A stretch of 64,000 bases of DNA, taken from positions 14,577,903 through 14,641,902 of the forward strand of contig CM082577.2 of assembly GCA_040954595.2 (NCBI GenBank), in the 5' to 3' direction. The notes under the pieces were generated by a model. That model saw only the letters and a list, made by a program, of their open reading frames with translations. It did no database searches and had not been told where the DNA came from. Source of the stretch: Balanoglossus misakiensis (taxonomy: Eukaryota > Animalia > Hemichordata). This document shows positions 1-64,000 of this stretch, piece after piece (within the stretch, counting starts at the first letter, position 1; every line of letters begins with the position of its first letter). A program made the translations under genes and the position numbers.

Positions 1-374
1 CAACATGCACAAGCACTTCTGGTTATAACAACAATGTTTTATTACGAAATTACATATACATGTATTTATATATATATATATATATATTTCTACAGCGATA
101 ATTGTGGAGTTCACACGGATATATAGAGTACTGCTCTCCTGTTATTACGTAACATTTAAATACACGCCAAAAGCAGATACACACAATGGCCTCAAGAGGG
201 CGTCCTAACACGGTGTACTTTTAGACAATGGTAAGTATTTAGCACGGACACTACAATAATCATATGATTTTAATAAAAGCATAAAATCGGATCTGATCGT
301 TCAGAATACGTGTGGTGACGTGCTACACTTTATAAGTGTAGAACTCTGGATAGTGTAGATTATACACCCACGCG

Positions 375-938
375 TCATGATTTCTTTTGTTTGTACTTTT
401 CATGTTCTTTGCATATTAACCGTAACTCGCCGCAGATTGACCTTAACAATCTAAGGGTTTCCATAGTTATCGTTTTTATCCCAGAGTCCGGATCACATGC
501 CTGTGTTTCTACCATCAACAGTAATGTTCGGAACAGCCGGATCTGTTCGGCGTGCAGACGCTCCGCCGATGGAATCACGTGTAAAACAAAATGTATGTTA
601 ATTTCATCTTTTGTCAACCGCTTCAGGCTACATTTCAATGCATGCATGTCGGGTGATGACTCAGGAAAGGCGTTCGCGTAATCCGTCAAACATTCTTGAA
701 CATCGTCGACAAGGTTGGCATCTGGGACGTACCCTGATTCGGCATATTGTCTTTCAGCCCATGCGATGGGGTTAAGAGAAGGAGCGTTTCGTTGTTCGTT
801 AGTGAGTTTAATCTTACATAATGGACAGGGGTTCTTATTCACTCCCATCCAATCCAGTTTGATCGTGGCTATTGGAGACAAATCGGATCGATTTGTACCG
901 CCGTTCATCACGTCAATGAAGTCAATGCTACTGTTCAT
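375..938 (-). CDS. Hypothetical viral protein (187 aa) with CPLC...HFxxH putative Zn-binding motif
   Basis: Intact ORF in the gene-dense block; CPLC near the N-terminus, IHFVLH later, helical C-terminus. Confidence 0.65.
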   Translation of the reverse strand: MNSSIDFIDVMNGGTNRSDLSPIATIKLDWMGVNKNPCPLCKIKLTNEQRNAPSLNPIAWAERQYAESGYVPDANLVDDVQECLTDYANAFPESSPDMHALKCSLKRLTKDEINIHFVLHVIPSAERLHAEQIRLFRTLLLMVETQACDPDSGIKTITMETLRLLRSICGELRLICKEHEKYKQKKS

Positions 939-1168
939 TGTTATGCCAATTACAAATTATGAAATATTAAAGATGTAATTACATGGTGTTTTTGTTCGAT
1001 ACAGACAGCTACTATTGTATAGACTTTCTCTCGGCTGAATCCTCGGATAAGCGCACCTATGGATTATAACGAAATTGCGTAGTAAAGTCCCACTACATTT
1101 AATTACCTGCTACATTACATTAATACATACAAACATGAGTATAATACTTGCGAGGGGGGGGGGTGTGA

Positions 1169-1543
1169 TCAAAATACGACAAAATCTTTGTCATCAAGTA
1201 TTAATTCTGTCCGGACATGCGTCTTTTGTAGGGGCTGGTCTATGCAATAATGTTCAGTTGTGGGACTAATGTGGCTTGAGGTAAACAGTGAGCTACCAAA
1301 ATCCTCATCGATTAGTATGCTACTGCCGGCGTCGCTATTGTCAACGTCTGATGGGGTCGTGATACCAACATTTTCAGGCGGGTGTGAGTGGTCTGTTTTA
1401 TCATAGTCGCCAACTAACGTGCTGTCATCACTGTCAGAGTCTGACAAGAGTTTGTTACCACCATCTTGAAAGGAAGACAGTTCGTCTGCATTTGGTGATC
1501 TAGGCTCGTCGCCATGGTCCATGTATCCACTATGTTCAGACAT
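1169..1543 (-). CDS. Acidic Ser/Asp-rich, probably disordered hypothetical protein (124 aa)
   Basis: ATG ORF divergent from ORF 1611; AT-rich box at 1565-1575 between them. Confidence 0.5.
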   Translation of the reverse strand: MSEHSGYMDHGDEPRSPNADELSSFQDGGNKLLSDSDSDDSTLVGDYDKTDHSHPPENVGITTPSDVDNSDAGSSILIDEDFGSSLFTSSHISPTTEHYCIDQPLQKTHVRTELILDDKDFVVF

Positions 1544-1610
1544 TCGATACTCTGTACAATCCTCTTATATTTAAGTCCACTCTTGACGCTAATACGTTTA
1601 AGTATATACC

Positions 1611-1832
1611 ATGAGCCAACAGGGTACTGAAGAGTCCCCTGCTCCCGTGCAGCGACCTCCTTCTTCGCCCAAATCTTCAAAATCACCTCTGTCTAATGTC
1701 AGAGAAGCCGCAGATATCTTTATGAGGATGTTACAGATTACAGTGCTTAACGTAACCGATTCAAACCCTGAAGGCAACAACGAAAGCCATGACGACAGGA
1801 AGCACAAACAACTTGTATCTAGTCTCTCATGA
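1611..1832 (+). CDS. Small hypothetical protein (73 aa)
   Basis: ACCATGA start about 40 bp downstream of TATATTTAAG; overlaps the start of ORF 1789. Confidence 0.4.
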   Translation: MSQQGTEESPAPVQRPPSSPKSSKSPLSNVREAADIFMRMLQITVLNVTDSNPEGNNESHDDRKHKQLVSSLS

Positions 1833-3309
1833 CTGTTCTTTGACACACATTGTTGGCACGCTCGAAGCACAATGTTCATTGGCGTGGCTTCGGTTCCTAT
1901 ACGAAAACAGACTGAGGCCATCGGCACCCAGAGAGACTGCCTCACTGACAACTGACTTATATGACATGGGAAAAACAATTGACAGGCACTATGTTAATGT
2001 CTATCCACCTCTATCGGAAGATATTGCGCAAACACTACAACCCCTCCTACTCTGGTGCAAAACTCAACTCTCATTTCTGGAGCTGGTGAAACAAGGTCAA
2101 CTACGGGCGACCTTGAACGGGTTAGCGAAGGGCCGTTGTACCGACCTGAAACTATTCGACAAGACGCTAAATGAACACATCCGTTTCCAATGGGCAGAAA
2201 AGGAGACAGATGAACTCTGTCAACTCGCAGATGTGGTGATGGATTTTTTAATAATGTTCGGAACCATGCCCGCCCTTCCAAGAGACGTTATACACTCCTC
2301 ATATGCCTGTTGGGAATGTCGTTTCGAAAATGCTTTACTGCCAAGAAATAGGGAGGAATTAGAGGTTGGTTGTTGCCATTTATATCGCGCGGTGTCATGC
2401 TCGGAGCAAGAAGACGACCCTATACCATGCCAAGCAACCAATAAACCGGAAATTATCGATACATCGGACGTTTCTGTATATCCGCTGGATGTACAGATGA
2501 GAGTTAGACAAGTGGCCCGTGAAAAGCAGCGACAGACACTCATACTACAAGAGATTGAAAAAGAAATCCAGACGTTAAACGTTCGATTGGAGTACCAATT
2601 GGCGCCGAAAGTACTATCTCTCGACGTTTTCAACAAGGTAAAACGAGTGTGCGATGGTTTGGAACTAAGAAAGTCAGCGGCAGCTTTTTTCACAGATACC
2701 ACACAACCAGTCCATATAGACAATGCATGTTGTCGCAGATTGATGTATTTGATGGAACAGGTTACATGGAGCGAGATGCTACAAAATCGTGCGTTAGATC
2801 TATACTTTTGGTTGACGATGGACCCTCTTACTCTAAGTAATAGCTCGTGGAGACTCGAGACCACATATAGAATGTGGAATGATGCCGCGGGTATGGACAT
2901 TTTTAAAGTATGTACATTTATAGACCAACTGAAAAAAACCCGCCCAGCCGACGTACTACGCGATGAAGGTGGTCCATGCAACCTATTATTCCGAAGTTGT
3001 TACATGCAGTGTCTACTGAAGGAACTAGGACAAATCCATCACTTTCAAGCCCCTACAGCACACCGTGCAGATACCTGGGATAATACTTCCGACGGCATGA
3101 TATTTTACTATGATAATGACTCGTTTGGTCTGTACATTACTGGTCGCGGTATACATTCTTTCCAGTACAAAGAGTCCGCAATCGCATTCACCGTGTGGTT
3201 ATATCATACCACAATGAAAAATCAACCTATACATAGACATGTTTTTCAAGGCTGTCCACTAAAACCGGAACAACCGCTCTTTTATAGCGTACCCACCACA
3301 AAGTCATAG
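1789..3309 (+). CDS. Putative terminase DNA-binding subunit (HSV UL28/HCMV UL56-like), 506 aa
   Basis: CWEC-RFE...N...CCH (C-x2-C-x17-C-x-H) resembles the UL28/UL56 Zn site CxxCxEEL...N...CNH; preceded by LADVVMDFL, similar to UL28 LHDVENFL; AATAAA at about 3433. Confidence 0.45.
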   Translation: MTTGSTNNLYLVSHDCSLTHIVGTLEAQCSLAWLRFLYENRLRPSAPRETASLTTDLYDMGKTIDRHYVNVYPPLSEDIAQTLQPLLLWCKTQLSFLELVKQGQLRATLNGLAKGRCTDLKLFDKTLNEHIRFQWAEKETDELCQLADVVMDFLIMFGTMPALPRDVIHSSYACWECRFENALLPRNREELEVGCCHLYRAVSCSEQEDDPIPCQATNKPEIIDTSDVSVYPLDVQMRVRQVAREKQRQTLILQEIEKEIQTLNVRLEYQLAPKVLSLDVFNKVKRVCDGLELRKSAAAFFTDTTQPVHIDNACCRRLMYLMEQVTWSEMLQNRALDLYFWLTMDPLTLSNSSWRLETTYRMWNDAAGMDIFKVCTFIDQLKKTRPADVLRDEGGPCNLLFRSCYMQCLLKELGQIHHFQAPTAHRADTWDNTSDGMIFYYDNDSFGLYITGRGIHSFQYKESAIAFTVWLYHTTMKNQPIHRHVFQGCPLKPEQPLFYSVPTTKS

Positions 3310-3492
3310 GACGGAATGAAAATAGAGTGTGCATATAAGTTGATTCTGAATTTCATTCAATTCAAGACACGGTACACGTCTATGGCTTACGAAAAAAAAT
3401 ACTCACTGGTTGTGCATGTTTGTTTTATCATCAATAAATAACAAGTGACACATTTTCGATGTATTTGTTCATTACTTCGTTTTATTTTTTTC

Positions 3493-4089
3493 CTAAACTC
3501 TCTTCTTAGTGTCGCGAATGACTCTCCAGTTTACATCCAACTGTTTGTGAACATAAGGAAAAGTCCAGTCTTCACTTTTAATATTTTCGTCCCTGATTGT
3601 AGTCATCGCTTGAATAAATTCCTTATATTCTCTCCGGATAGATTCTATGGGATGGTCTAACTCCATGACAGTTGTGCGACCCCAAACAACAACCATGTTC
3701 TCTAGTTCCTTTAGTCTACTTCCTGCTTTGATGTGCATACTCATTTTCTTTTGTGGAGATTGGTCTGAATTATTTAGTATCATCACAAGTGACAGCACGA
3801 TCGAGAAAACGGACAACTGGAGGACAAACAGACATTGAAACGGTCGCTGATGGGAACTTACGTAGTCATTGAGTACGCTTCCGACATTTATCATACATCC
3901 ACTGATTATTATTATCGATATAAATCTCAAAAACCTTGTCCAAGTCTCGTATCGGTCAGCGCTCAGATAGTGCGATACACAGTGAAAATGCAACGAATGT
4001 GTAAAGTTTTCCGCCATATCGCGGAAATTCCTTCTGACATCTAATGCGTCGATTGGCCGATTTAAACCACAATGGCTTGAGTTTTCCAT
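3493..4089 (-). CDS. SLATT-family two-transmembrane effector domain protein (198 aa from ATG at 4089)
   Basis: SHYLSADRY..W before TM1, two hydrophobic helices, then SPQKKMSMHIKAGSRLKEL (P..x..H..AG..L) and a helical tail, the SLATT signature pattern. Confidence 0.65.
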   Translation of the reverse strand: MENSSHCGLNRPIDALDVRRNFRDMAENFTHSLHFHCVSHYLSADRYETWTRFLRFISIIIISGCMINVGSVLNDYVSSHQRPFQCLFVLQLSVFSIVLSLVMILNNSDQSPQKKMSMHIKAGSRLKELENMVVVWGRTTVMELDHPIESIRREYKEFIQAMTTIRDENIKSEDWTFPYVHKQLDVNWRVIRDTKKRV

Positions 4090-4179
4090 AATTATTATAC
4101 AAACTGTACTAACGTTCGCAAATTGTGACCGCGTTCTTCTGTTTTCTCGCACGCATGGCTGGGTACTTGGTGTGCCTTT

Positions 4180-4467
4180 AATATCAATATATCCGTGGAA
4201 GGCATCTATGCAAACATTGACTTTGAAGACAGACTCTGTGAAATATGTACAGGAGGTGTGGAGGATGAATTTCATGTAATATTTTTATGCCCATTGTTTC
4301 AGAGCTTAAGATATTCATTACCACACGACAACTCCGAGTCTCTTTATGAAGAGAAATTTGTAACACTGATGAGGTCAAAGTCGCCAGCAGTGTTAAGAAA
4401 CCTTGGCAAATTTGTACATGTCTATATCTCGTCGGTAAATCACCATCTTACATGTACTTCGATATAA
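4180..4467 (+). mobile_element. 3' fragment of a non-LTR retrotransposon (LINE ORF2 C-terminal Zn-finger region)
   Basis: ISVEGIYANIDFEDRLCEIC..VEDEFHVIFLCPLFQSLR...LMRS...LGKFV matches the IEtGRy..RlC.C..vEDE.Hf.l.Cp.y..lR tail of LINE ORF2. Confidence 0.75.
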
Positions 4468-4474
4468 CCTTAAG

Positions 4475-5017
4475 CTATGCGAACCCCTTTACAACCTGAG
4501 CGACTTTATCTTCTAATTCACCCAGGCGCTGTCTCAAATTGTTTGTTTCTTGGCCGTGTACAGTACGGTGATTATGTAATACCCGAGCATTGGATATTGC
4601 ATTGTACCTATTATACAGTGCCATCAAGACAACGGACATCATATCTCCTACGTGAATACACAATCTGGCGTGGAAATCAGTTTCGGATATTTGTCGAAAT
4701 CTTAAATCGAGCAAAGATAGACTGGCTAGACGAATAAAAGATTCCGCCAGAAAATATGAAAAGGTATCCGTTGAGTCATAAACACGAGATAGAATCCCCA
4801 CCAATGTCCACTTTAGCCCGCAAAACAAAGCGGCAAAAAACAATTGGAAATTAATTCCGACTGAAGATATATAGTTATAACGATCATCCCCAAAAGTCTT
4901 GGCGATACTACCGTTGACTTCAAGATGGGAAATAGACAGATAAGTTCCTATTATATAGGCCAACGATGCAAACACTAACGTGGAATATTTAGCAAATCGA
5001 CTTTCTAACCGTCGCAT
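4475..5017 (-). CDS. Multi-pass membrane protein with C-terminal coiled coil (180 aa)
   Basis: Three to four hydrophobic segments; tail NNLRQRLGELEDKVAQV; head-to-head with ORF 5083. Confidence 0.65.
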   Translation of the reverse strand: MRRLESRFAKYSTLVFASLAYIIGTYLSISHLEVNGSIAKTFGDDRYNYISSVGINFQLFFAALFCGLKWTLVGILSRVYDSTDTFSYFLAESFIRLASLSLLDLRFRQISETDFHARLCIHVGDMMSVVLMALYNRYNAISNARVLHNHRTVHGQETNNLRQRLGELEDKVAQVVKGFA

Positions 5018-5082
5018 ATTGGCACTTATGGGTTATTTACGTCAACACGATGCACAAGCAACGTTATTAAGTTCTCATAGAT

Positions 5083-5724
5083 ATGTGGTTATTTCGGAAC
5101 AAACGAGCAGAAAGCAAGGAAGAAGAAGCGCGTAAGAAACGCATTGAAAAACAGAGGGAGATCGCATTGCTGATCAAATCAAACGAACAGAAAGCCAACG
5201 ACCTAGGTAAAAAAATTGTGTCGCTAGCGCTGGATAATACCGCCCCCACGCGTCGCTTTTCTACAGCCTACAAAGAAAAACTAGCCGCAGTGAATGCCAC
5301 ACTCCTCGAGAAAGTAACCACTGGATTAGTCAAGTTAGAAAGTCTGTCAGTGGATATCCAACTAGAAGATCTCCGCGTCCAACAAAGTCGTTTTCAACAG
5401 TCCCGATATAAACTACTTCAAGAGGAAGAACGAGTGTTGGCGCGTAATTTGAATAAGTGCCCACCAAAGAGAATTAGAGCACAGTCCAATCGTTTAAACC
5501 GACTACGAGAAGCCAACCGTTACAGAGACGAAATTATACAAGACTTGTACGAAGACAGTGATGAAGACTGTCAAGATTCGGCCTTTTGTCAAGCCGGTCT
5601 CGAAACTGTTGAAGAATTGCGCAATCAATTCACGGAGTCATCGTTGCTGGAGGCACCTAACGTTGTTTTAGGCAGCCTATCTTTAGAAGACAACGATACA
5701 GCAACACGCACCAAGCACAGTTAA
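5083..5724 (+). CDS. Coiled-coil protein, candidate ESCRT-III/Snf7-like (213 aa)
   Basis: MWLF N-terminus, basic helical N-half, acidic C-half (EDSDED..EEL), C-terminal LEAPNV resembling a MIM2-type motif; size typical of CHMP proteins. Confidence 0.5.
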   Translation: MWLFRNKRAESKEEEARKKRIEKQREIALLIKSNEQKANDLGKKIVSLALDNTAPTRRFSTAYKEKLAAVNATLLEKVTTGLVKLESLSVDIQLEDLRVQQSRFQQSRYKLLQEEERVLARNLNKCPPKRIRAQSNRLNRLREANRYRDEIIQDLYEDSDEDCQDSAFCQAGLETVEELRNQFTESSLLEAPNVVLGSLSLEDNDTATRTKHS

Positions 5725-6236
5725 TTGCGACTATTAAAATAAAACCTCCTCAATTAGTTCTAACTTTTATTGACTCACGCATTTACTTCACACCGTGATG
5801 TACACGCCCCACAGCGAACAGAAGACAACGATACAGCAACTCGCACCAAGCACAGTTAATTGCGACTATTAAAATAAAGCCTCCTCAATTAGTTCTAACT
5901 TTTATTGACTCACGCATTTACTTCACACCGTGATGTACACGCCCCACAGCGAACAGAAGACAACGATACAGCAACTCGCACCAAGCACAGTTAATTGCGA
6001 CTATTAAAATAAAGCCTCCTCAATTAGTTCTAACTTTTATTGACTCACGCATTTACTTCACACCGTGATGTACACGCCCCACAGCGAACAGAAGACAACG
6101 ATACAGCAACTCGCACCAAGCACAGTTAATTGCGACTATTAAAATAAAGCCTCCTCAATTAGTTCTAACTTTTATTGACTCACGCATTTACTTCACACCG
6201 TGATGTACACGCCCCACAGCGAACAGAAGACAACGA
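5685..6236 (+). repeat. 135-bp tandem repeat, 4 near-identical copies plus a 12-bp partial
   Basis: AGAAGACAACGA recurs at 5685, 5820, 5955, 6090 and 6225; the unit includes the ORF 5083 stop codon and AATAAA on both strands. Confidence 0.95.
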
Positions 6237-6372
6237 GGAAGAAACACGCAAGAAACGCATTGAGAAATAGAGGGGCCATAAAATTGTTGTCGATAGTGCT
6301 GGATAATGCAGCCTCAACACGTAGATTTTCTACAACATACAGAGAAACACTAGCTGTCGTGAATGCCACACC
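6237..6372 (+). pseudogene. Degenerate partial duplicate of the 5' part of ORF 5083
   Basis: Encodes LDNAASTRRFSTTYRETLAVVNAT versus LDNTAPTRRFSTAYKEKLAAVNAT; has an internal deletion and a stop. Confidence 0.85.
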
Positions 6373-7615
6373 GTGGGGTACACATCCCACAGAGGCCATC
6401 TTCAAAAGCAGTCAAATTGTAACATTCTTGTGACCCGCCTCTGCAAACGCGGATGGTTGGAAAATCTGGCTGATCAATGTATAATGCCACACCATGACTA
6501 GGATATAACAGCGGTATTTTTACCAATCTATATGAATGACAGAGACCACACCTCGGAGTTAACGTGTCTTGTTCTAAATAGTACGTATATCCCGGAGCTC
6601 TGTTTTTTATATGCAAACAGGTTAGCACGCCGTAGCAATGTCGACAAAAAATAACGCTGGTGCGGTGAGCGATTGTAAACTGGACCTCTTCGCGGACATT
6701 GATCGCGCGTTTTAGTTTGGCGAGAATCAATCTATCCATGTCGTAAAAGAATTTAACCTGTCCCGCTCGGCCGTGTAGTAATAGTATCGCCTTGATAAGC
6801 CTCTTTTGCCACAGGCCTAACCGACGTATGAGACCGTTTACTGATTTTGAATTGTAATCAGTCAACTGTTGTCGAAGAAGGTGCAGGCGTGTCAAGAAGT
6901 GTCTATCGTTTGCAGATTCTCTATGGAAAGCCACGAGATTCAATGGCCAAGACCATACCATTCGCTCATAAACATGTTTGAGGGTGGTAGGTAGATGGGC
7001 GGCCGAAATCCGAGGCATCCTATTCAGAATAATTTTACATAATTGTCTATGGGTGGGTGTCCTGAGCTTGGGAATACATCGTTTCAATTTTGCTTTGAAA
7101 GAATCAGAGTCACACGTGCTTAGATGAAGGACAGTCGAGAGTCTCTTCACCGAACAAACATTCCCTTGGTAGTTGTGGAACAATGAGCCACTCCATTGCA
7201 TCGTTGGCTCGGCTAGCTTGTCATAAAAGTGGATTAACACGAGTAACCTAATCCAGTTAGGATGTTGCAGGCACCATTCAGTGGTTAACGACAACCGTGT
7301 TATACGGTTGTGTACCCGCTGCAATATAGAAAGAATATCTGTCCATTGATTTTCTCTCACTAGATTATTTAGTCCGTGCGTGTCTTTACAATCAATCGCA
7401 AACGTCACAAAGTCATTTACAAAATCCCTCGTATTGGGTGTCTGCACTCCGGGGAAAGTGATGCTTGCGCGATTGAAGCAAGACTGGAATAAGTCCATAC
7501 CTAATGCGCGGGGGGGAGCTAATGCGTCGATTTTATGAATGTCGTGTGTTAAATATGTCATACACAGCGTGCGTGTACAGTTCAAAGTTCCCTTATGTGA
7601 GAACAGAAATACCAC
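6350..7615 (-). CDS. Cys-rich protein resembling beta/gammaherpesvirus late transcription factor UL49/ORF66 (421 aa)
   Basis: C-terminal FCRHC...RCGLCHSYRLVKIPL...C..C..CGMC; the second pair resembles UL49 CSLCGSqRv. Confidence 0.45.
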   Translation of the reverse strand: MVFLFSHKGTLNCTRTLCMTYLTHDIHKIDALAPPRALGMDLFQSCFNRASITFPGVQTPNTRDFVNDFVTFAIDCKDTHGLNNLVRENQWTDILSILQRVHNRITRLSLTTEWCLQHPNWIRLLVLIHFYDKLAEPTMQWSGSLFHNYQGNVCSVKRLSTVLHLSTCDSDSFKAKLKRCIPKLRTPTHRQLCKIILNRMPRISAAHLPTTLKHVYERMVWSWPLNLVAFHRESANDRHFLTRLHLLRQQLTDYNSKSVNGLIRRLGLWQKRLIKAILLLHGRAGQVKFFYDMDRLILAKLKRAINVREEVQFTIAHRTSVIFCRHCYGVLTCLHIKNRAPGYTYYLEQDTLTPRCGLCHSYRLVKIPLLYPSHGVALYIDQPDFPTIRVCRGGSQECYNLTAFEDGLCGMCTPRCGIHDS

Positions 7616-7866
7616 AAGTAAACATGCAATGGACGTGAATACAAGAACGCTCTTTTATTCGCTCGTTCAGGTATACATTTTCTTGTTATGTTTCAACCTC
7701 GTACAAACAAAAATACCACAAGTAAACATGCAATACCGCAAAAGAAATATTGGACGGTACGCTGGCAAACCGCCCTCTACCGGCGGATTTAGAATTACTG
7801 TCTGAATGAGGGTAAGTGATTGTGCTTAGTTGAGTAAGTAGAGGTCTGCTATGTGTCGACGCCCTT

Positions 7867-8945
7867 TTAAATTAACTGCACCGCTAAATATATACTCATG
7901 AATATGGAAGAACAAATACATAAAGGGTAAACTACCGACGACCACCGCCACAGGGCAGACTTGGACACATCAGGAATGACTTCAAATGTTAGGTCAACCG
8001 CCGGATCTTTGTAAGCAGCATCGCATTCTGGGGGTTCGCAACAACTTAAGTATATTGTCAACGTTGAATGATCGTCACTCGCCCAGTCTTCGACCAGACA
8101 ACAAGTATAATTGTACTCGTAATAAGTGTACAAAATCTCGTGTAACATGCATAACCGTTTGTACAAATGATACGTCTCGAAAGAATCTTGCAATTTCGCA
8201 ACTATCTTATAACAATGAGTCAAATGACCAACTGGGTCATCCACACTGTCGTATCTGGTGATCTGTCCATTCACACAGTTTTCGATAGTCTGGTACATGT
8301 CTGTCCCTTTCATATCTTCTTTCTCTTGACTATAATAACATGTACTCGCCCTTGCGTTGAAATCTGCTTCCAAGCGTATCACCAACCTCCTGTATAATTT
8401 TGACTTTAGAACTGTTACATCGAAGCACATACTGTAGGTTCTTTCAAACATTTTCAAAGAATAGACTAGACTTCCTATGTCACATCTGTCAACTTGTCGC
8501 TGATCGCTACTACACATTATAAAATACATGGTATACAGACCGTCTTCGTTTGCACAAAGAGAGTGATCTCTTCCCGACAACAATTTTAAATTGAACGGGT
8601 GCCGGGCCAGTCCAAATATCAAAACGTCCATTATATCACGGTCTGATACAACGTCGGTTTCCGGAAGTTTTTCAAACCAGACGGGCCATGTTGACACGCT
8701 TAAGTTAGATTTGGCAACGTGTACATCGTCTAACATATATTCCGTGTTCGGATGTTGTTTAGATTGGGAATCACTTGAAACTGCGTCTGAAATCGCATAG
8801 GCTCTATTCGACCACGCAGGGTTGTCCATGTTGGGTTCCCCTCTTGAGAGAATGCGACCACGGCAGGTGTTACGTCACCCAACTGAAGACCATTCACAGA
8901 CATTAATAACATCAAAAGAAAAGGGGTCGTCATTGTCACCAGCAT
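7867..8945 (-). CDS. Probable type I membrane protein interrupted by a 1-nt frameshift near 8838-8841
   Basis: ORF 8730-8945 provides a signal-peptide-like start; ORF 7867-8829 provides a Cys-containing body and a C-terminal TM; one extra G in the G-run fuses them in frame. Confidence 0.55.
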
Positions 8946-9028
8946 GTGTATGTGTGTTGGTAGAGTACGATTGTAGATAACGTATAAATTAATATATGCA
9001 CATTAATAATTCGGGAGGTGTTATTCTT

Positions 9029-10354
9029 TTACAGGCAACAACACAGCGATGCAAGCGGTGAACACAGGTCGTTACACAATTGTTTAGCCTTAGAAGGAAA
9101 TTGTTGATGAATGTCTTTAACTATGGATTTTTCAACCACAAAATGTATAGGTTCCCTGGACGATTTTATCCCAATATCCTTTTTTTTAATTGGTTGTAAA
9201 TTGGCCATGTCCTGAGACGATGGTTTACAAGTCTTGTATGACGTCAAAGACACAACATTATCTATATGATCCAAAAGGCTACCGTTGTTGTTTTTGTGTA
9301 ATATTTGTGCGTGTGCATCATCTTGCTCGAAAAGATAGAATGTTACCGACGAAGAATAAATGTCACTTTCGTGAAGATGTGCACGGTCTGGTCCGATTTC
9401 AAAATGTTTTTCGATGACTATTGCGACTCTATCATTACAGTGGTTTTTCATCGCCCTTAACACGGACGGTTGCAGTTGCTGCAGACGCAACGAATCTTTA
9501 CGGCTGAAATTCCGTGGGGTCAGAGGATCATCCAAAACAGAGGTTGTGGCGGAACACATGACTGCAACGACTTGTTTTAACAGAGGCAGTAAACCGTCTT
9601 CCGGTGACATTAGGCGATGGATGTAATTTCTGTACGCAGACCGAGTGATGAATGGGTTATTCGTAGACATGCATACTTCATGAATAAACCTCTTTATCCG
9701 CACATACAATTGATCAAACTCTATATATTTTGATTCTTGGGTGATACCAGCGATTATGTTTTTCACCAGAGCAAACAATAGTTGTAGATGTCTTTCCAGA
9801 CAACTTATTGCAAATAATGCTGAATAAAAATTGGCCGACAACCACTGTGGTGTAGATTGAATCCAGAAAGGGTCGTCAAAGTCACTGCGTGTACTCAGTC
9901 CATGGCCCGCGAAAGTTTCCACGTCCGTTCTACACTTGACAGCACGTGGTACTTGTAAATGTTTCAGCGAATTCTCGATGGTTACCTTCCATTTTCTCAA
10001 CCTCGCATTGTTTATAACATCCACCGTAACGAACGAATGGCATATTCTCCGCAGTGTCCTCATTAATATTTCGTAGAAAGGGTTGTCACTAACATACGTA
10101 ACTCCGTCAAATGTCCATGAAAATACGTAGTAATCAAACCGTTCATATTGAATGTATTCCTCCCAATTCCCTTTCAACGTGTCGTCAAATAGCGAAGTTA
10201 TAAGTTCTTCATCCTCGACGTCCTTTAACAGAATGTAAACATCTCGCCTATCCCGACAAGTTCCTAAATTGATAATACTTTCCCACTCTTGACAGTTTTC
10301 TTTGCAAGGAACAGGGCCTACTATGAGTTCGGGAGGTTGTTTGACAATATCCAT
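9029..10354 (-). CDS. Hypothetical viral protein (about 441 aa from first ATG) ending in CCCL
   Basis: Long intact ORF in the viral block; terminal CaaX-like motif. Confidence 0.7.
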   Translation of the reverse strand: MDIVKQPPELIVGPVPCKENCQEWESIINLGTCRDRRDVYILLKDVEDEELITSLFDDTLKGNWEEYIQYERFDYYVFSWTFDGVTYVSDNPFYEILMRTLRRICHSFVTVDVINNARLRKWKVTIENSLKHLQVPRAVKCRTDVETFAGHGLSTRSDFDDPFWIQSTPQWLSANFYSALFAISCLERHLQLLFALVKNIIAGITQESKYIEFDQLYVRIKRFIHEVCMSTNNPFITRSAYRNYIHRLMSPEDGLLPLLKQVVAVMCSATTSVLDDPLTPRNFSRKDSLRLQQLQPSVLRAMKNHCNDRVAIVIEKHFEIGPDRAHLHESDIYSSSVTFYLFEQDDAHAQILHKNNNGSLLDHIDNVVSLTSYKTCKPSSQDMANLQPIKKKDIGIKSSREPIHFVVEKSIVKDIHQQFPSKAKQLCNDLCSPLASLCCCL

Positions 10355-10612
10355 AGTCAATTCAAAGACTCTCAAAGCAGTCTGTTAATGGTCTCATATT
10401 GACGCAAAGTAGAATTACGGCTATGAATAAAAGAATTACTGTTAAATTGATTGTTTTGTCCAAAACGTTTTGAATCTGATATCAACGTGACAGGCGAACC
10501 ATGTCGGGCGAAACTGGCTGATATCAGTAATGTTTACAGTTGTTGCTGATTGGTTGAACCATCTTCAATCATCTGCTCACTTGCAAAACAGAATAACAAA
10601 CTGAACAGTATC

Positions 10613-10860
10613 GGGAATTTCAGAGTTTGGGTGGGAAATTTTCCAACAACATTGTATTGTAGACACACAGAGACACGATTAGAACAGAATATTGAAGGAG
10701 ATTGATTATTGATGCGTGTGACATTGCAGAGGGCGTTCAGTTGACTTCAAATACACGGTAGCCACCATGCAAATTTAGTCACCGTTTCCATGGAAAGTTG
10801 AGATGAAGCCAATCACATATTTTGGCGGGGTGGCCGAATGATCGGGGAATACACTATAAA
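10613..10860 (+). promoter_or_regulatory. Candidate Pol II promoter of the A20-like gene with kappaB-like sites
   Basis: GGGAATTTCA (10613), GGGAAATTTTCC (10633), CCAAT (10809), GC-rich box (about 10824), GGGGAATACAC (10844), TATAAA (10855). Confidence 0.35.
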
Positions 10861-11193
10861 AAAAACAAGACAGTGAACACCCATGTGTTTTCTTTATTTA
10901 CATACATTTAAATGCGAACTAAAGACCCCGAACCCAGATAGCCCTTCTATAGACCGGACTTTGAAACAGCCATGCCCCTAATTGTTCTGACCCTAAAAGA
11001 TGTACAAGTTGGCACGTTTGTCCTTGAATTAGCTCGTGGATGACATCGACTGTAGTATCATGTCGCGAGTTCGACAGGTATGTTCACGGTGTACCTACTT
11101 AAACGAGTAGGTTTAATTAAAAGTCACCACAACGCTCAACTACTTTCTACGTAAACGATCGGCGTTCATACTGTTCGAGAAGCTATCAGCAAA

Positions 11194-11631
11194 ATGACAG
11201 AACGGGCCTCTGTTCGAAACGGACAAGTATTTTATGTGTGCACAACGCTAGACTGCGAAGCTGTCGGTTTCAAATCTCTCGATGGACTCTGTTGTAGGTG
11301 TTACGCACTGAAGGCCCCGAACCCAGATAATCCTTGTACAGACCGGACTTTGCAACAGCCACCGGGTAATGCCACCCACTGTTCTTACCCTGCTTGTTCC
11401 AACGTCGCCGTGTCGGAAAATATCCTATTATGCCGTGTATGTCTAACCATCTTAGACGAAAAGGGAAAGACACCCGGCAAAGAAAGACGCATGTCAACAA
11501 TCAAAGAATCCACCACAGAAGACAATCCCTCTGTACCCAAAACTCTGTGCAGGTTTCCGGCTTGTACCCACTTCGGCAACGAAGATTGCGTGGGATATTG
11601 TAACGAATGTTATAAAGTGTTGACGAAATAA
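11194..11631 (+). CDS. A20-type zinc-finger protein with three C-x4-C-x11-C-x2-C fingers (145 aa)
   Basis: Last finger CRFPACTHFGNEDCVGYCNECY closely matches TNFAIP3/A20 ZnF7 ([22 protein letters not shown]); AATAAA at about 11692. Confidence 0.85.
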   Translation: MTERASVRNGQVFYVCTTLDCEAVGFKSLDGLCCRCYALKAPNPDNPCTDRTLQQPPGNATHCSYPACSNVAVSENILLCRVCLTILDEKGKTPGKERRMSTIKESTTEDNPSVPKTLCRFPACTHFGNEDCVGYCNECYKVLTK

Positions 11632-11776
11632 TAGGATTTGACGCTTCCATAGTTTCGTTGTGGACACACTTGACAGCATTCAAAAACTGGCAATAAAATG
11701 ACCAACATAACTAATATTTTTTTCGTCTATTGTCTTTTGTAGTAAGGTCGCAATGCTTTCCCAGCATGCACGTGTC

Positions 11777-12691
11777 TCATTTGATCCCCGTGCATGACTT
11801 GTTAAAGACATGTCTTCGACGACAGTATGTGGACTTCCCATATTTATGTGCTGTTATCTTCGGATTTAGTTTGTGAAGATGGTATTTAAGTTCGCAGTAA
11901 AATAATGCAATTTCTGATTCCATAATTTTTAGAACAGTCTTCAGTAGTGGCCAACATCTCGTTAAAACAACCACTAATATTATTCCTTTATACAAGAGAA
12001 ATTCGAACACGTATTGGAGGCCAGCCACGGCGCAAATATCGGTCATGACAGTAGGGTTGCAATCTCCACGAAGTGACACCCAAAAAAGTAACTGAAGTGG
12101 GTAGTACATGACATATCTCGAAAGTGTAATACTTTTGTACCACTGCAAATCTGCACACAACCCACCGGCCCCGACACCTCTCTGTATCCAATAAATGACA
12201 TCTTGCCACCAATTGCGGATGTTCGCGCAACCACCACGTGTGTTGAGAGCTGCCATGGCATCGAATATGTCCATATGCCAAGCGATTTCCGAATGAATAG
12301 GTTTTCCAGAAAAACAATGTCCTTCAAAACACCTTTTGAATTTCTCAAAACCTACGGCTAAAGGATCTATGATTCCTCTCAAATCTTTCACAATAGCGCT
12401 CAAAACAACACCTAAACCACCAGTGATTTCCTTGAACAACTTCACGAGAAACAATCCTATGATTGAAACGACAGCTGTTGCCAGCGCGATGTACAAATAT
12501 GAATTCCAAGGTGCAAATCTGTAAAGAGTCCGACATACAGCTTTTGTGAGATGCCAAGCGGAAAGCTGGTGTTTCACAGTATCCTTATGTCTGTATATCT
12601 GAGCCTCGTACTGGTACACGACTTTATCGTCTGCCTTGTGCCCTAAAACCATGGCGCCCAGTGGTATCTCAAGATATAATATATTTATCAC
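11777..12691 (-). CDS. Cys-containing multi-pass membrane protein, possible envelope protein (about 291-304 aa)
   Basis: Hydrophobic segments YLYIALATAVVSIIGLFLV and YVFEFLLYKGIILVVVL flank a Cys/Trp-rich loop; head-to-head with the terminase. Confidence 0.65.
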   Translation of the reverse strand: MINILYLEIPLGAMVLGHKADDKVVYQYEAQIYRHKDTVKHQLSAWHLTKAVCRTLYRFAPWNSYLYIALATAVVSIIGLFLVKLFKEITGGLGVVLSAIVKDLRGIIDPLAVGFEKFKRCFEGHCFSGKPIHSEIAWHMDIFDAMAALNTRGGCANIRNWWQDVIYWIQRGVGAGGLCADLQWYKSITLSRYVMYYPLQLLFWVSLRGDCNPTVMTDICAVAGLQYVFEFLLYKGIILVVVLTRCWPLLKTVLKIMESEIALFYCELKYHLHKLNPKITAHKYGKSTYCRRRHVFNKSCTGIK

Positions 12692-12724
12692 GTTATTAAT
12701 GTGTAAAAATATTCTCTACCGGTC

Positions 12725-13429
12725 ATGGAGGCAGACAAGCTCAGCCCATTTGTCAGAGATGCCCAGAGAATGGACGCTCTCATTACACAGTGTAGACAAC
12801 AACAAGACCAACTTAGGGGTGTGTTTTTAAGAAAACACGCGTACAAGGAAAACTATATGTTTTCTCGCGTTGAAGACGTAGACGCGAGACTGTCTTTAAT
12901 GAAAAGGGCTATACAAACCATCCGATTGTTATGCAAGGGGAAACAATTTACGTTCGAACCTTTCCAGGAGGAGATGTGTAGGGCCATAATGTTAAGTCGC
13001 TTACGACATTTTTTTGGTGAGGAATCTAAAAAGTTTTTCTTGCCTGTGATGAAATACCTAGGTATAATTTCAGCACACTTTGACGAGCGAACATGCGACA
13101 GAATCAACCTATCGAGAGTACGTAGCCAAATAGAAGAATATAACCATAAGTTTATCGTTGTCATGGTACCGAGACGCTCTGGTAAAAATGCCACCGCGCA
13201 AATTATTGCCACGACACTTTTATTGTACGAACCAAATTGTTCAATCATAGTTTGGGCTCAAGACATGAACTGTGCGTTACTGAACAAAGAAGGTATATGT
13301 GAAAATCTATCGCTGCTCAAGACAATATCTGACATACCATTCGATTTTCGCGTTTCCGGGGATACGGTGACAGTCGTAAGATGTGATGGTAGTAAAGGCA
13401 CTCTGCGCGTAAAGCCTAATTCGCCTAAT
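12725..13429 (+). CDS. Herpes-type DNA-packaging terminase ATPase subunit (UL15/UL89 homologue), exon 1
   Basis: FEPFQEEM (cf. UL15 LELFQKM), Walker A VMVPRRSGKN (cf. VPRRHGKT), ends KPNSPN (cf. SSHNTN) immediately before a GTAAGT donor at 13430, phase 0. Confidence 0.85.
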
Positions 13430-14006
13430 GTAAGTGTAAACACATTCCATCTACTATTATGTATTTGCATTGTATCCAGTTTACATTTTGTGTTCAATAT
13501 TTATTTCATTATTGCGTACACTTGGATGGTCATCTCAATGTAGTTGTATTTGTAGAGGCCTATGGCAACTGGCCATGGCGAAAAGATAAAGGTGCCACGC
13601 TCGACACTCTATCACTATTTGATTTACGTTTGTGTATGGGTTCGAATGGCACAAAAGTCACAGGACGCAAATGTTTAGATCACAGTGTATCATTTTATTG
13701 CGTGTCATACCGATATACAAAGTTAGTACGTACAATTAAACGCTTTCTTAAAGAGTCAGTCAGTGTACTAATCTCAAAATGTGGTCGCTATCCATTCACA
13801 CATGGATCATGCTTCCTTTGTCCCAATGATCGTAAAATTCATCCCATCACACCTGTTTAGATGTGTACAAATCAGCCGTCGAGAGTTCACAAATACTATT
13901 CTACTTAATCGCCATATAATGGTCACGAGAGGGCGCCGTCGCTTGCTGTTTTGTTAGTACAGCACAGGTCAATCAAGGTCATCTATTGTGTTCTGTCACA
14001 GTCCGT

Positions 14007-16079
14007 TCAATTGGCAAATGCGAGGCAATTCATTCTTCGCGCTTGGCTGGCACACGACACTGCGTCAGTGGGTAGTTTAAGATGATCATATATTTCATCA
14101 AATCGACGTTTAAACGACTCTTGCATCACCGCTACATTTCTTTGGTGCATTTCCATTTGCCTGGCCTGGGACGCGACCGTCTGCGTTAACTCATCTACTT
14201 TCGAATTGAGCTGTGCCTTATCAGACTCCAATTGGACTATGCGCATTTCTCGCTCTTTTAGCATAGCCATTACATTCTCCGCGGCTGCTGATTGCTCCCT
14301 ACAGTTTTCCAACTCGGAACGGAGCGACTCGATAGCAGCTGCTTGTTCCGCACTATGTTCTTGGTGACGTGAAATGGCATTGTACAGACAAGCGCCCTGT
14401 TTCGAGTTGAGAAACTGTACGATAGCTTGAAAGTTCTCATGACTATTCCTTGTACGGGGGCTGTCTTTCACAAATTCTTTCAATAGTTGACATTCTATAG
14501 TGGCGATCGTGATATCGCGTTCTGTTTTCTTGAGTAGGCGACTACCGACCTTTTTCGACATGCCTGATGTGATCTCGTCAACGCCGAATACAACAGTGGC
14601 GCCTGCCAACACCGAGGACATGGCAGTGACGTAGCAACCTAACACAGTATAGCCGAATTTATCATACTGTGTGCACAAGTCGACGCGTGAAGAGTTGGAA
14701 TATTGCGGTTTTGAGCGAATGATTCGGGCCACGGTGGAAACAATCGCACTATTCTGACATGGTTCGTTGTTTTGACCGGATAATCCTAACGGACACTTGA
14801 ATTTAGTTCCAGATCTGCTTTCTATCAGTTTTATTGCGATTCGTTTTGTTGGGCCAGACGATTCGATTACTTCAATGGTTGGGTTGTCCGGGATAATTGC
14901 GTCGTTAGAAACGGTTACATTTATCACTTTGCAATCTTCTAAGGGTTTCATAATCTTAAACCAATAAATTGTCGCTGGATACACTTGTTCACCAACGTGC
15001 ATGTAGTACAAATTGTTCTTTAATTGTGGGGGCAATTTATCGCAATCTCCATACAGCACAGGCATCCCAACCACAGCCGCGGCAGAATTTATGTCATCCT
15101 CTGTCGACAGTTGAATCAAAGGAGGGGTTTTCGAGTCCAAGAAATCGCATACATAATTCTTGTTCCGTTTACAGTCTTTCATTCGCTTGCGCTTGGCAGT
15201 TACCGAAGTATTGTCTCCCAACAGCGAAAACTGATCGTTTCCACATTGCACAGTAATAAGGTTCCAGGCCTCTTTCGGAGATAGCACGTGATAATGCCCG
15301 TCTTTCATTAAAGCGATGCACGGAAAATCATTGCTTTGACCTTTCTGTAACATGTATGATATAGGTGTTCTGATTGCGTCGTGAAACTCTTTCATACAGT
15401 CATTATCGCTTGTGTATAATGACAGAATAGCACCAAAATTGCCGCGAATGGTCAAATGGCGTTCCGCGTCGTTCGATTGGTCTGGTATTAAATCCTGAGT
15501 ATAAGACATCGGACTTTGTGCGTCGAGCGGGGGGTGAATTTCAGCGGCAGATGCGCGAATTTCCTCTGGAACTTGATAACTGGTGCATGGATGAGAAACT
15601 GCAGTGGCATTCTCTGACGGCCCCGGGTTATATTGTTCAGTGTGGTTGTCGGATCCACCGTGCCGGTCCGCGTGATAGAACGGAGAAGAGTCTATCGAAC
15701 TGGGTTCATTATGGACTAAGAATTCGGTCGTTGCCTCTGTGGCATTCACGCTCGGGGCCTGACGGGTATGATCTGATACGCCTAGCAACAAATCTATGAT
15801 GTTTGGAGACTCGTTCACCATTTCGGCCGAAAAATCTTGTTCAATATCGTCTCCAAATAAAAAGTCTTGGACGGTGGTATAAGGCTCATCGCTCGATATA
15901 TCAGGAGCCATTTCTACATCACAAGCCTGTATGACAAAAAATGAGGAAATGTATTAACAGTTGTGCGAAGACACAGTGGGTTAACAAACAAAATGCGTTT
16001 AATGTGTATATGTACTCACGGGAATTTGAACCTGTCGGAGTACCGTCTGTAGAAAATCACTATAATCGGTTTGAGCCAT
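14007..16079 (-). CDS. Spliced gene (exons 16079-16020 and 15926-14007): disordered N-terminus, conserved central domain, C-terminal coiled coil
   Basis: ATG at 16079, GTGAGT donor at 16019, pyrimidine tract plus CAG acceptor at 15927; phase-0 join into the 634-aa ORF. Confidence 0.75.
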
Positions 16080-16488
16080 CTTCAATAATAAGCTGTACTC
16101 GTGGTTGACGTTCGCTTTATACATGTGCAACGTGTGTTCACATCAACATGCATGGGTTAAATTCATGTATGTTGTTGTGTATCCATCCCAGTTTACGTGT
16201 AGGCCGTCGCGATCACGTGACAAAATACGAGGTCATTATTACCACCACAAGCTACATATAAGCTGCCGTGACCACGTTATGTGTATGTATTTGTATGTAT
16301 AAATTACTTCATGTACGTGATGTGTAACTATAAAGGTGATGTAGTTACATCGAGACACCATCTTAGTACACACACACTGCACAACTTGCATAAAATGTAG
16401 TTCATACACGTATACAAGCACGGTGTTTTGTATCAAAAATAGTTTAATAACAGCTATTCTACAATGACTTTAACAACCACTGTAAGTA

Positions 16489-17377
16489 TCATTCTGTCAA
16501 GTTCATTTTTTCGTCTAGGCCAGGGACCATCTTACACATTTCGGATAATGCTAGAGCTAATATTCTGTTTTCCAGTTCTATATTGGATATTTTATCTATG
16601 GGGTTGTTTTCAAAATCTGTAACGCTTTCGTCATCATGCAACAACAATTTGAACCACAAAATAATCGCTACGTATGAGTCACCTTCGAAATTGATGACGG
16701 ATATTGAGTCATTTGCATAATCAGATATATCACATAGTACCGGCATTCCAAACTTCGCATACAACCACCTGTTGGATCCTTCAACAAAACGGTCTGTTTT
16801 AAGTCTGGGTGTCTGTTCTACAAAATTACCTAACGCACGTGGGTTTGTAGTTAACCCAAGTTCACGAAGGATATCATGGCTATTTTGCAAAACCATGGAT
16901 TCTACCGCGTCTAAATAATGCATGGCTTGTACACTGCCATCTTCCCTTAGGAAAAGGGTTGAACACCTATCAACACCAGGAGTAGCTAAAGCTTCCAGCG
17001 AAACAGTACACGCACTGGGGACTGATTGCCAAACTCCTCCACGTTGTTTATAAAAAGCTATGTATTCTTTGAAACACGACCCGTGTGCTTGTATCGTTTT
17101 TATTTTATTTAACAGTATCATTGGATGGTGATTTTGCGACCTCCGGTGTGTTGATTGGTGAACATCCTCAGAGACGACCTAAACAGTTGCATTGATAGAG
17201 AGGAAGATAGAAAGAGTGGTTTAGTGGAAAGTAATATTTAGTCAAATGTTGGCAACCCGATTTACATGTAGAATGACATGTACGTACCTCAGTTGTATTT
17301 TCAGTAGATATATCCCGGGATGAATCGTCGGGTTCATGAATAGGCGTTTCCGTATGTTGTTCTTGGATCACACGAAC
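16489..17377 (-). CDS. Spliced paralogue of the preceding gene (exons 17377-17288 and 17178-16489; first exon not found)
   Basis: Shared motifs GMPVL...Y.A.I.WFK and C..L..DG..; GTACGT donor at 17287; TAG acceptors at 17179 and 17378 keep the frame. Confidence 0.65.
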
Positions 17378-17462
17378 CTACAAAAAAACAAACAAAAGTG
17401 TAACATTTTTAACATTGCTTGGGACCACTCCGCTTAATGGTTAGCACACACACACACAATCG

Positions 17463-18021
17463 CTGGCTCGCCGTTGACTGGACCAGCGCGCCCTCAACCG
17501 TTAACAAACAAACGAACACCGCTTCGCAATGTCCCAGCGTAAATCTCTCTTGACAGTAAAGTTTAATTGGCGGTCCACGGGATACTAATTAAACAGTTTT
17601 CAAAGCAATGAAGCCCTTACACGGAGGCGTGAAAAACTAATTGTCCGCCTCGAGCTAGCTAAGTATTCGGCTTCAACCGACTCGCCATTTTTAAGCGCAG
17701 CCAGATAGTAGCGCGTGTTAACCCCCCCCCCCCCCCCACCCCAACCAAATCAGCGACGAACCTTCAATGCCGGCTGACTGGTAGCAGAAAACACAAACGA
17801 CCTTGAATCACACCACGACAGTAGTCGGGTCTGTGAGCACCCCCAAACGCAAATTTATCGGCGAAAAACTACGGGAGCTTTTTGAAACAGCGACACTGGC
17901 TCGCTGTTGACTGTACCAGCGCGCCCTCAACCGTTAACAAACAAACGAACACCGCTTCGCAATGTCCCAGCGTAAATCTCTCTTGACAGTCAAGTTTAAT
18001 TGGCGGTCCACGGGATACTAA
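17463..18021 (+). repeat. About 125-bp direct repeat pair (17463-17588 and 17896-18021)
   Basis: Near-identical ctggctcgc...cgggatactaa copies. Confidence 0.9.
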
Positions 18022-18039
18022 AATGATCGACCCAGAAGT

Positions 18040-21870: not shown

Positions 21871-22214
21871 AGGGACAAAGTCTCTCTCTCGCTGCCCTTT
21901 TTTTCCATTAATTATATTTGATACAAGACACCGTTTGTTATTCTACATGTGGATATATAGTGAATGAACGTCCAACCACCCGCAACTTCCATCCCTCTTA
22001 TAGACAGGAGAGTGAAAAAAATCGCCAAAATGAATCATTGTTCTGTACCATTAATTCATTTTGGGCGAGTTTTTACTCTCGTATCATACAAGTGGGATGG
22101 AAGTTTTGTGTGGTTGAACGTTCATTCACTATATATCCACATGTAGAATAACAAACGGTGTCTTGTATCCAACATAATTAATGGAAAAAGGGCAGCGAGA
22201 GAGACTTTGTCCCT
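21871..22214. mobile_element. Palindromic MITE with AGGG...CCCT termini at TTAA (Kolobok/T2-like), copy 1
   Basis: About 160-bp inverted arms; TTAA on both flanks. Confidence 0.85.
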
Positions 22215-22235
22215 TTTAAGATAATAAAGACTTTT

Positions 22236-22755
22236 GTCTTACCACTCCCATCAGCGTCTGACCTTCGGCAGTCTACATGTCTGGTCATACATACATACAT
22301 ACATCAACGTGTACATGTCTGATCAGCTGGCAGAAACAGTCAGTTGACTTCTGAGTGGCCTCGAGTCAATGTAGTATGTGTCACGCGCAAAGCACCATGG
22401 GAGTTCCAACATGAGTAAGCGTTGTGTCTTACCACTCCCATCAGCGTCTGACCTTCGGCAGTCGGCATACATGTCTGTCATACATACATACATCCACATA
22501 TACTAGTACATGTCTGATCAGCTGGCATCCGGGTGTCCTATGGGAGTTCCAACATGAGTAAGCGTTGTGTCTTACCACTCCCATCAGCGTCTGACCTTCG
22601 GCAGTCGGCATACATGTCTGTCATACATACATACATCGACATACTAGTATACTAGTACATGTCTGATCAGCTGGCATCCGGGTGTCCTTGCGTCGGTGGT
22701 AGTGGTATATGTCACACGCAAAGCACCATGGGAGTTCCAACATGAGTAAGCGTTC
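22236..22755 (+). repeat. Imperfect tandem array (about 3 units of 140-190 bp) containing (CATA)n
   Basis: tgtcttaccactcccatcagcgtctgaccttcggcagtc recurs three times. Confidence 0.85.
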
Positions 22756-24703: not shown

Positions 24704-24786
24704 GGTCAAACACCGATGGGGGGCGGTAAGACAAAAATCTTTATTATCTTAATTGTAATATACCTCATTCGCACTGTGGCATTTAA

Positions 24787-63988: not shown

Positions 63989-64000
63989 AAGAAAGTTTTG

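Follow-up and report, generated by a model that had tools for sequence, protein, structure and literature searches.

The 64,000-nucleotide window analyzed here (Balanoglossus misakiensis assembly GCA_040954595.2, contig CM082577.2, positions 14,577,903 to 14,641,902; coordinates below count from the first letter of this window) carries, at 375-17121, a compact block of genes that is probably part of a deep-branching herpes-like DNA virus, one that lies outside the three named herpesvirus families by sequence, is likely integrated, and is likely latent-like. The block holds 14 ATG-started, non-overlapping open frames of 124-634 codons that cover 73% of the span, in agreement with the ~15 compact, nearly all intact open reading frames counted in an initial annotation made from the letters alone. 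ATG frames of at least 140 codons number 14 (13 genes and one antisense shadow), whereas the 60 second-order Markov shuffles that set the chance level averaged 0.68 and never exceeded 4. Exact-identity look-up found none of 10 window proteins in the protein collection. The block is part of a viral genome only, and the gene on which its placement turns is the following.

12725-13435, plus strand: terminase ATPase subunit, first exon (235 codons, 12725-13429) with its GTAAGT donor (13430-13435), identified from motifs, relatives, and predicted fold.

This frame bears an FEPFQ motif and the Walker A sequence VPRRSGK, much as the initial annotation had described them (LELFQ-like and VPRRxGK), and its conservation stops at the GTAAGT at 13430. 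In a profile search, the frame alone gave only a weak PHROG terminase match (E 8e-4). A search of 1.84 billion representative proteins with the exon returned 23 hits, of which 22 are true relatives (16-67% identity); the other, P0020, was rejected as a repeat artefact. All 22 relatives read V-S straight after the same position, as expected of a phase-0 splice donor that has been translated through. The terminase splice itself was not seen, and the donor is taken from this conserved read-through, which upholds the spliced terminase proposed earlier. The 23 hits included no full-length or named terminase, none was full length at E 0.001, and a word-based search found no longer relative among 498 candidates. 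When 20 of the 22 clusters were looked up, one member was called "hypothetical protein" and the rest were nameless, a comparison that supports a putative lineage without any named member among the 22 relatives. In a tree of the terminase rows, the window falls in a 7-row clade with support of 100/99; the tree comprises 23 unnamed rows (P0020 dropped, five rows a few residues short) and shows depth rather than placement among known families. Three terminase alignments found no relative in IMG/VR, where the locus L001 was rejected as ordinary phage. Four of the relatives (P0026, P0023, P0018, and P0029) sit on contigs of 144, 335, 58, and 60 kb, and capsid and polymerase genes are possible there.

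The terminase exon was modeled with a predicted local distance difference test score (pLDDT) of 87 from the 23-sequence alignment, versus 40 from the single sequence. In a fold search of BFVD, the top 13 matches were all herpesvirus proteins (TMq 0.54-0.68, 13-18% identity; best phage match 0.44), spanning alloherpes, alpha, beta, gamma, and soft-shell clam herpesviruses. In a comparison with PDB structures, herpes simplex virus 1 (HSV-1) UL15 came first, with a Z score of 15.3 and a root mean square deviation of 2.5 over 162 residues, versus a Z of 9.8 for the best phage terminase. By both measures the terminase is closer to herpes than to phage proteins. We did not find a phage-type unsplit large terminase in a prokaryotic context, since the donor is spliceosomal and the herpes fold ranks first. 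The last model residue (235) superposes on UL15 residue 342, and we take exon 1 of HSV UL15 to end near residue 343. The available passages of PMC6843332 gave no confirmation of that exon end. Taken together, the relatives and the model support 12725-13429 as the front half of a eukaryotic Duplodnaviria terminase with a predicted herpes-type fold, split at a conserved donor.

The initial annotation had regarded a Herpesvirales terminase as established from its motifs. The predicted herpes-type fold is in line with such a terminase, but the motif evidence was overstated, since mirusvirus terminases are also split near Walker B, as passages of PMC12768974 describe. The same passages report trans-splicing of the terminase in most mirusvirus orders, at some sites that match those of alloherpesviruses, so that the split marks a eukaryotic duplodnavirus but does not tell herpes from mirusvirus. 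In orthoherpesviruses, the second terminase exon lies ~3.5 kb from the first (passages of PMC13595911), and no such second exon in cis was found ~3.5 kb downstream in the window. Motif scans for a Walker B/nuclease exon in fitting frame found none on either strand of the 64 kb, and loss after insertion is possible.

In fold alignments, identity to the terminases of all three herpesvirus families is 11-18%, with values of 14-18% for Alloherpesviridae/Teratorn, 13% for the soft-shell clam herpesvirus, and 11% for ORF109 of ostreid herpesvirus 1 (OsHV-1; BFVD rank 18). No herpes Pfam family matched any of the 23 terminase alignment rows or the 14 window frames, so that no sequence kinship with Orthoherpesviridae profiles was seen; none was detectable between the terminase and Alloherpesviridae/Teratorn or Malacoherpesviridae either. 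The earlier impression that no known herpes family fits is thus sustained, both by these identities and by the 22 relatives. It is highly improbable that the virus is simply a very divergent member of a named family, whether Alloherpesviridae/Teratorn-like or Malacoherpesviridae-like. The three best BFVD folds are alloherpesvirus proteins, the fifth is a clam herpesvirus terminase, and a second subunit of 480-506 aa fits the alloherpesvirus size (passages of PMC13030845), but identity is equally low to all families, and the absence of a full-length terminase at E 0.001 differs sharply from the ~1e-95 to 1e-105 at which amphioxus and Capitella elements match malacoherpesvirus terminase (passages of PMC5552708).

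As described in those passages, Branchiostoma (amphioxus) and Capitella scaffolds carry malacoherpes-like sequences, including a terminase, with integration unproven. The window resembles them in having Herpesvirales genes, terminase included, in invertebrate scaffolds, integration being unproven in either, and differs in that its terminase was found by fold alone. Divergent herpes-like insertions in starfish and ribbon worm genomes have already appeared in a preprint; these too are herpes-like gene blocks in invertebrate genomes outside the named families. Unlike the present element, they were placed by DNA polymerase, of which this window has none, and a terminase exon, splicing, and expression do not figure in the available passages of the preprint. 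Herpes-like insertions in invertebrates are already known, and the present element would be a further, divergent case. Teratorn is an integrated herpesvirus (PMC5601938 and PMC5822658), and with it and the Alloherpesviridae the window shares a multi-exon terminase, a second subunit of ~490 aa (a candidate here), and, for Teratorn, integration (passages of PMC13030845). It differs from them in terminase identity and in its invertebrate-type surroundings, and no piggyBac transposase was found among the frames scanned, with a window whose left end does not reach the left end of the element. A Crypton relic at 33 kb, interrupted by stops, is the sole recombinase in the vicinity, also unlike Teratorn.

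The second main result concerns expression. Three runs of one sample (X1, X2, and X3) carry the block and were compared at contig level. The X3 contigs cover almost only the last two genes; the other 12 are uncovered, which is no evidence of their silence. Three contig joints are present in X3 and have depth 0 in X1 and X2, and all correspond to minus-strand GT-AG introns (17378-18668, 17179-17287, and 15927-17287). Run X3 is likely RNA, and the last two genes appear to be one minus-strand spliced gene with shared upstream exons and two alternative last exons, as follows.

14007-15926, minus strand: 634-codon frame with a C-terminal coiled coil, alternative last exon B (X3 joint, in-frame acceptor).
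16489-17178, minus strand: 210-codon frame (229 codons from the acceptor), alternative last exon A (X3 joint, in-frame acceptor).
17288-17377, minus strand: shared 90-nt coding exon 2 (X3 joints).
18669-18758, minus strand: shared coding exon 1 of 90 nt, paralogous to exon 2 (X3 joint; 51% nucleotide likeness).
22243-22605, minus strand: three repeat copies (ends at 22243, 22433, and 22576), all of them bearing an ATG in frame and a GTAAGA donor, the probable upstream exon.

The joints that link the two 90-nt exons to the 210- or the 634-codon gene are what is new here. Frame 0 is the only open frame of the two internal exons, which resemble each other beyond shuffled expectation (P 0.0015), have identical donors, and are the only open 90-nt AG..GTRMGT exons in the 64 kb. 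Both last exons are entered in frame from their acceptors, and by our own arithmetic chance alone would yield, about once in 1000, a pair of exons that are both open (0.26 each) and both a multiple of three in length, together with two in-frame acceptors. Upstream, an X3 contig has a loose end of 29 letters that fits each of the three repeat copies, and the exon that they provide ends in an in-frame ATG-GGA-GTG. The boundary placed at 17.4 kb by the initial annotation therefore does not hold, given the exons at 17288-17377, at 18669-18758, and probably at 22.2-22.6 kb. Three more intronless genes are found at 26.5-31.4 kb. Because coding exons of the last two genes lie upstream there, the DNA from 17.4 to 22 kb is largely intron rather than plain "host" sequence.

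Last exons A and B share one weak motif (E 0.006). No relative of the 634-codon frame was found among 7993 candidates, and none of the 210-codon frame in family libraries and exact look-up. The literature searched held no account of a spliced two-ended gene of this kind or of this terminase family. By analogy only, the arrangement is like that of IE1/IE2 of human cytomegalovirus (HCMV), in which shared upstream exons are joined to either of two long last exons to give two proteins with a common N terminus (passages of PMC7019229). Unlike IE1/IE2, the shared exons here are duplicated 30-codon units, the introns are filled with host-type repeats, and no sequence relationship was found. It is very unlikely, in our estimate, that the block is an integrated relic whose only working gene was captured by the host, with start codon and promoter supplied by the host repeat at 22 kb and domestication in place of latency. 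The upstream exon does lie within a three-copy repeat nested in MITE-like elements (MITE, miniature inverted-repeat transposable element), and the searches run turned up no relative of either last exon, but the two internal exons, paralogous, in frame, and with the same donor, have the appearance of an old gene structure, and the packaging-type genes are as intact as the expressed ones.

The remaining genes of the block could be compared with L002, a 7.3-kb Joint Genome Institute (JGI) metagenome contig that carries one relative of the 506-codon protein.

375-938, minus strand: 187-codon gene with a CxxC...HxxxH pattern, a conserved viral gene without a family match in library scans (45% identity to L002 3231-3692).
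1169-1543, minus strand: 124-codon acidic gene (a 75-codon acidic frame at the same place and strand in L002, no tblastn match).
1789-3309, plus strand: 506-codon gene, candidate second terminase subunit (UL28-like), from two relatives, a cysteine/histidine cluster, and size.
3493-4089, minus strand: 198-codon SLATT-like gene with two membrane helices, absent from L002 (two hydrophobic segments; NCBIfam SLATT_4, E 1.4e-5, 25 bits versus a cut-off of 55).
4475-5017, minus strand: 180-codon membrane gene (46% to L002).
5083-5724, plus strand: 213-codon helical gene, like ESCRT-III (endosomal sorting complex required for transport III)/Snf7 by layout only (32% to L002; basic front and acidic tail in both).
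5685-6371, plus strand: tandem array of 4.1 x 135 bp and a decayed partial copy of the 213-codon gene.
6350-7561, minus strand: 403-codon gene with CxxC pairs near its C terminus, putatively UL49/ORF66-like by motif alone (53% to L002).
7867-8829, minus strand: 320-codon gene with a C-terminal membrane anchor.
9029-10354, minus strand: 441-codon gene (open frame).
11194-11631, plus strand: 145-codon cysteine-rich gene with an A20-type zinc finger (Pfam zf-A20, E 2.9e-4, 21.1 bits versus a cut-off of 21.6).
11777-12652, minus strand: 291-codon membrane gene.

Five of the eight main L002 genes match the 187-, 506-, 180-, 213-, and 403-codon genes, with order and strand preserved (32-53% identity), and second codon positions are the best kept between the two (0.57-0.80, versus 0.31-0.36 for third positions). 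Judged by this conservation, the five-gene stretch common to both is a conserved viral gene block. L002 lacks both the SLATT-like gene and the long interspersed nuclear element (LINE) relic described below. The SLATT-like gene lies in a 260-codon frame whose start is most likely at 4089, giving 198 codons, because the 5' extension enters the LINE relic. Upstream of the shared genes, L002 encodes an 892-codon cysteine-rich, repeat-stalked membrane protein (520-3198) and a putatively PC4-like 75-codon frame (259-486) without a Pfam match.

Among the gene labels of the initial annotation, A20 and SLATT find weak support in profiles, while UL28-, UL49-, and Snf7-like have no profile, atlas, or PDB-sequence match. 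The two relatives of the 506-codon protein (42% and 35% identity) keep the CxxC...CxH cluster and a central helical stretch. This protein had no profile, PDB-sequence, or atlas match (atlas recognition was below threshold), and its gene had no relative in IMG/VR or prokaryote genomes. Its cysteine pattern is presumably like that of UL28, and the putative UL49/ORF66 reading of the 403-codon gene likewise comes from a likeness in cysteine motif. The 403-codon protein had no Pfam, PDB-sequence, or usable atlas match (again below the recognition threshold), and 14 IMG/VR loci for its gene were dropped as likely chance, with matches of only 27-30 residues. The 506-codon protein is also similar in size and layout to ORF74 of salmonid herpesvirus 1, an alloherpesvirus UL28 homologue of 492 aa (passages of PMC13030845).

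The 213-codon gene bears on whether the virus falls outside Herpesvirales and is instead related to mirusviruses, of the animal or of a protist partner. In mirusviruses, Snf7 belongs to the core genes, and the terminase is split near Walker B and in most cases trans-spliced (passages of PMC12768974). The 213-codon gene here has the size and charge layout of Snf7, and no second terminase exon was found within 50 kb downstream. The window is like Mirusviricota in a terminase split before Walker B with its other half far away and in a possible Snf7-like gene. However, a mirusvirus Snf7 example matches Pfam at 4.5e-17, whereas the 213-codon protein and its L002 relative have no Snf7 Pfam match at E up to 10, and the former has no PDB-sequence match. 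The empty IMG/VR search, the animal-type LINE, Gypsy, and Crypton neighbors, and the UL28-sized candidate gene also speak against this alternative, which we consider unlikely. The known mirusvirus hosts are unicellular, unlike the present one, and no mirusvirus marker was recognized here, in a comparison that included no mirusvirus sequences; Metazoa were excluded from the mirusvirus screen of PMC10827195, according to the passages available.

Returning to the herpes-like element, we are fairly confident that the block is integrated in an invertebrate chromosome, on account of repeats and decayed sequences within it.

4197-4419, plus strand: remnant of the 3' part of a host LINE (ORF2, zinc-finger end) within the viral block (translation; zf-RVT, E 0.19; many related copies in all three runs).
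10546-10823, no strand assigned: host-type repeat present in many copies and lying between viral genes (at 10823, 19 X1 contigs and 14 X2 contigs have loose ends).
19063-19188, plus strand: decayed fragment with stops in the first intron, a paralogue of the membrane gene at 28 kb (phmmer, E 1.2e-4).

Integration is favored because of the LINE relic and host repeats inside the block, a shared MITE family, decayed gene copies (at 6.2-6.4 kb and 19.1 kb), and a depth that stays level (126-157) across the long X1 contigs between 215 and 19292. The MITE-like repeats are palindromic and lie at 21.8-25.2 kb, and their family recurs at 50-51 kb in CpG-poor DNA; with the Crypton-type (DUF3504 and Phage_integrase) and Gypsy (gag-protease) relics that Pfam finds at 33-41 kb, they confirm the host-type neighbors named earlier. 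GC content is 39-46%, and CpG is undepleted up to ~32 kb and mostly depleted at 44-56 kb, as expected for methylated host DNA adjoining unmethylated or young DNA. In that stretch (44000-56000), observed/expected CpG is 0.34-0.61 in five of six 2-kb bins and 0.92 in the sixth, versus ~1.0 at 1-32 kb. Separately, one contig each in X1 and X2 at 16273-16472 and 17058-17269 represents a diverged copy of lower depth with small gaps, including a one-base loss in the 210-codon frame; these diverged, frameshifted contigs are a second, decayed copy elsewhere in the sample.

Several points weigh against this interpretation. None of the contigs listed runs across the whole block or connects it with the CpG-poor DNA past 44 kb, and beyond 20 kb the block is linked to further DNA only by the window assembly and the X3 loose end, so that the integrated element of the initial annotation is probable by its internal repeats but is not spanned. 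Block depth is ~4x the lowest recurring single-contig depths (X1 27-36, X2 87-96), and extra copies or an episome are possible, although contig depth is no copy number and has no host baseline. Run X3 (28 Mb of contigs) is listed as "DNA?", its library type not being on record, at two of its joints the shorter side amounts to just 30-31 letters (85% likeness), its contig and the window disagree at 2 places, and all three runs come from one sample. A dormant infection would fit the two-ended spliced RNA, by its layout only. As for the terminase, Foldseek E-values against PDB are weak (1.4e-3), the UL15 profile matched only at E 0.17, and the comparison set contained no mirusvirus terminases, whose split site can coincide (passages of PMC12768974). 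The UL28-, UL49-, and Snf7-like labels rest on motif and size resemblance. The element would work like a herpesvirus, and membership of Herpesvirales is likely; at the level of the order it rests on one half of a gene, because we recognized no HK97 capsid, triplex, portal, protease, family B polymerase, or helicase gene and no second terminase exon in the 64-kb window, in which the 441-, 320-, and 412-codon frames were not folded.

The depth figures also bear on whether this could be a free or episomal virus genome that acquired host repeats and that the assembler fused to host DNA, via shared MITEs, somewhere beyond 19 kb. Flat depth at that multiple, a very small number of variant letters in 16 kb of unique sequence, the lack of a contig across the block, and the openness of all frames would agree with such a genome. 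We nevertheless consider it quite unlikely, since the LINE relic, MITEs, decayed gene copies, and frameshifted second copy are traces of chromosomal residence, and contig depths give no copy number.

From the gene block, the fold, the donor, and the contig-level joints, we infer the following for an integrated, latent-like herpes-like virus. Such a virus may have entered the germ line, or may lie latent as an integrant. The terminase exon would be joined to a Walker B/nuclease half outside the window, either in cis over a long distance or in trans, a route proposed for alloherpesviruses and shown for mirusviruses in passages of the literature cited above, and the 506-codon protein would be its partner subunit. 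The packaging genes are still open, and the terminase would need its distant second exon. Transcription of the two-ended gene would begin at 22 kb or farther out and would yield two proteins with a common N terminus, likely regulators or maintenance factors. Host LINE and MITE copies have inserted between genes and in introns while all 14 frames remained open, which suggests either a young insertion or continued selection.

A bolder proposal, which we hold to be possible but doubtful, is an unnamed family-level branch of animal duplodnaviruses with at least four deep clades (the 22 relatives), combining a herpes-type two-subunit terminase with mirusvirus-like traits (a distant or trans-spliced second exon and a viral ESCRT-III), integrated, and running a latency or immediate-early program from one alternatively spliced gene. 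Invertebrate herpesviruses are anchored by just two viruses of molluscs, and the transition from mirusviruses of protists to herpesviruses of animals remains an open problem. At a similar distance from each of the three families, the present lineage would provide new branches, and its conserved split terminase could be used as a marker. If the two-ended spliced gene, for which the literature searched gave no description, holds up, it would offer a handle on viral persistence in an invertebrate.

Beyond the spliced gene, the window contains three further intronless genes.

26484-27482, plus strand: intronless F-box/LRR (leucine-rich repeat) gene, a possible member of the element (Pfam F-box-like, E 7e-9).
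28055-29056, minus strand: cysteine-rich type I membrane gene without introns, a probable member of the element.
30115-31353, minus strand: intronless 412-codon orphan gene, a possible member of the element.

The membrane gene is tied to the element because of its relic paralogue at 19.1 kb, and its protein has no significant alignment with the L002 glycoprotein (E 0.2). A codon-usage score did not separate viral from transposon frames and was uninformative for the genes at 26-31 kb. No telomere-type repeats were found, and Rfam had no match in 1-33 kb. Directly after the last intronless gene lies a stop-broken Crypton-type tyrosine recombinase relic (32800-33943), which could be host sequence or the former integrase of the element. 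Within the nested inverted-repeat elements at 21793-25179, an array of 8 x 82 bp (24026-24682, 99% identical) has a 30-40 nt motif in common with the repeat containing the upstream exon, and an A-rich array with units of about 105 bp is found at 25378-25961. At the far end of the window, an intronless HECT-domain frame of very low CpG (0.14) lies beside an integrase-core frame (rva_4, E 2e-32) at 59353-61308 and 62726-64000, and these are host-side and transposon-like.

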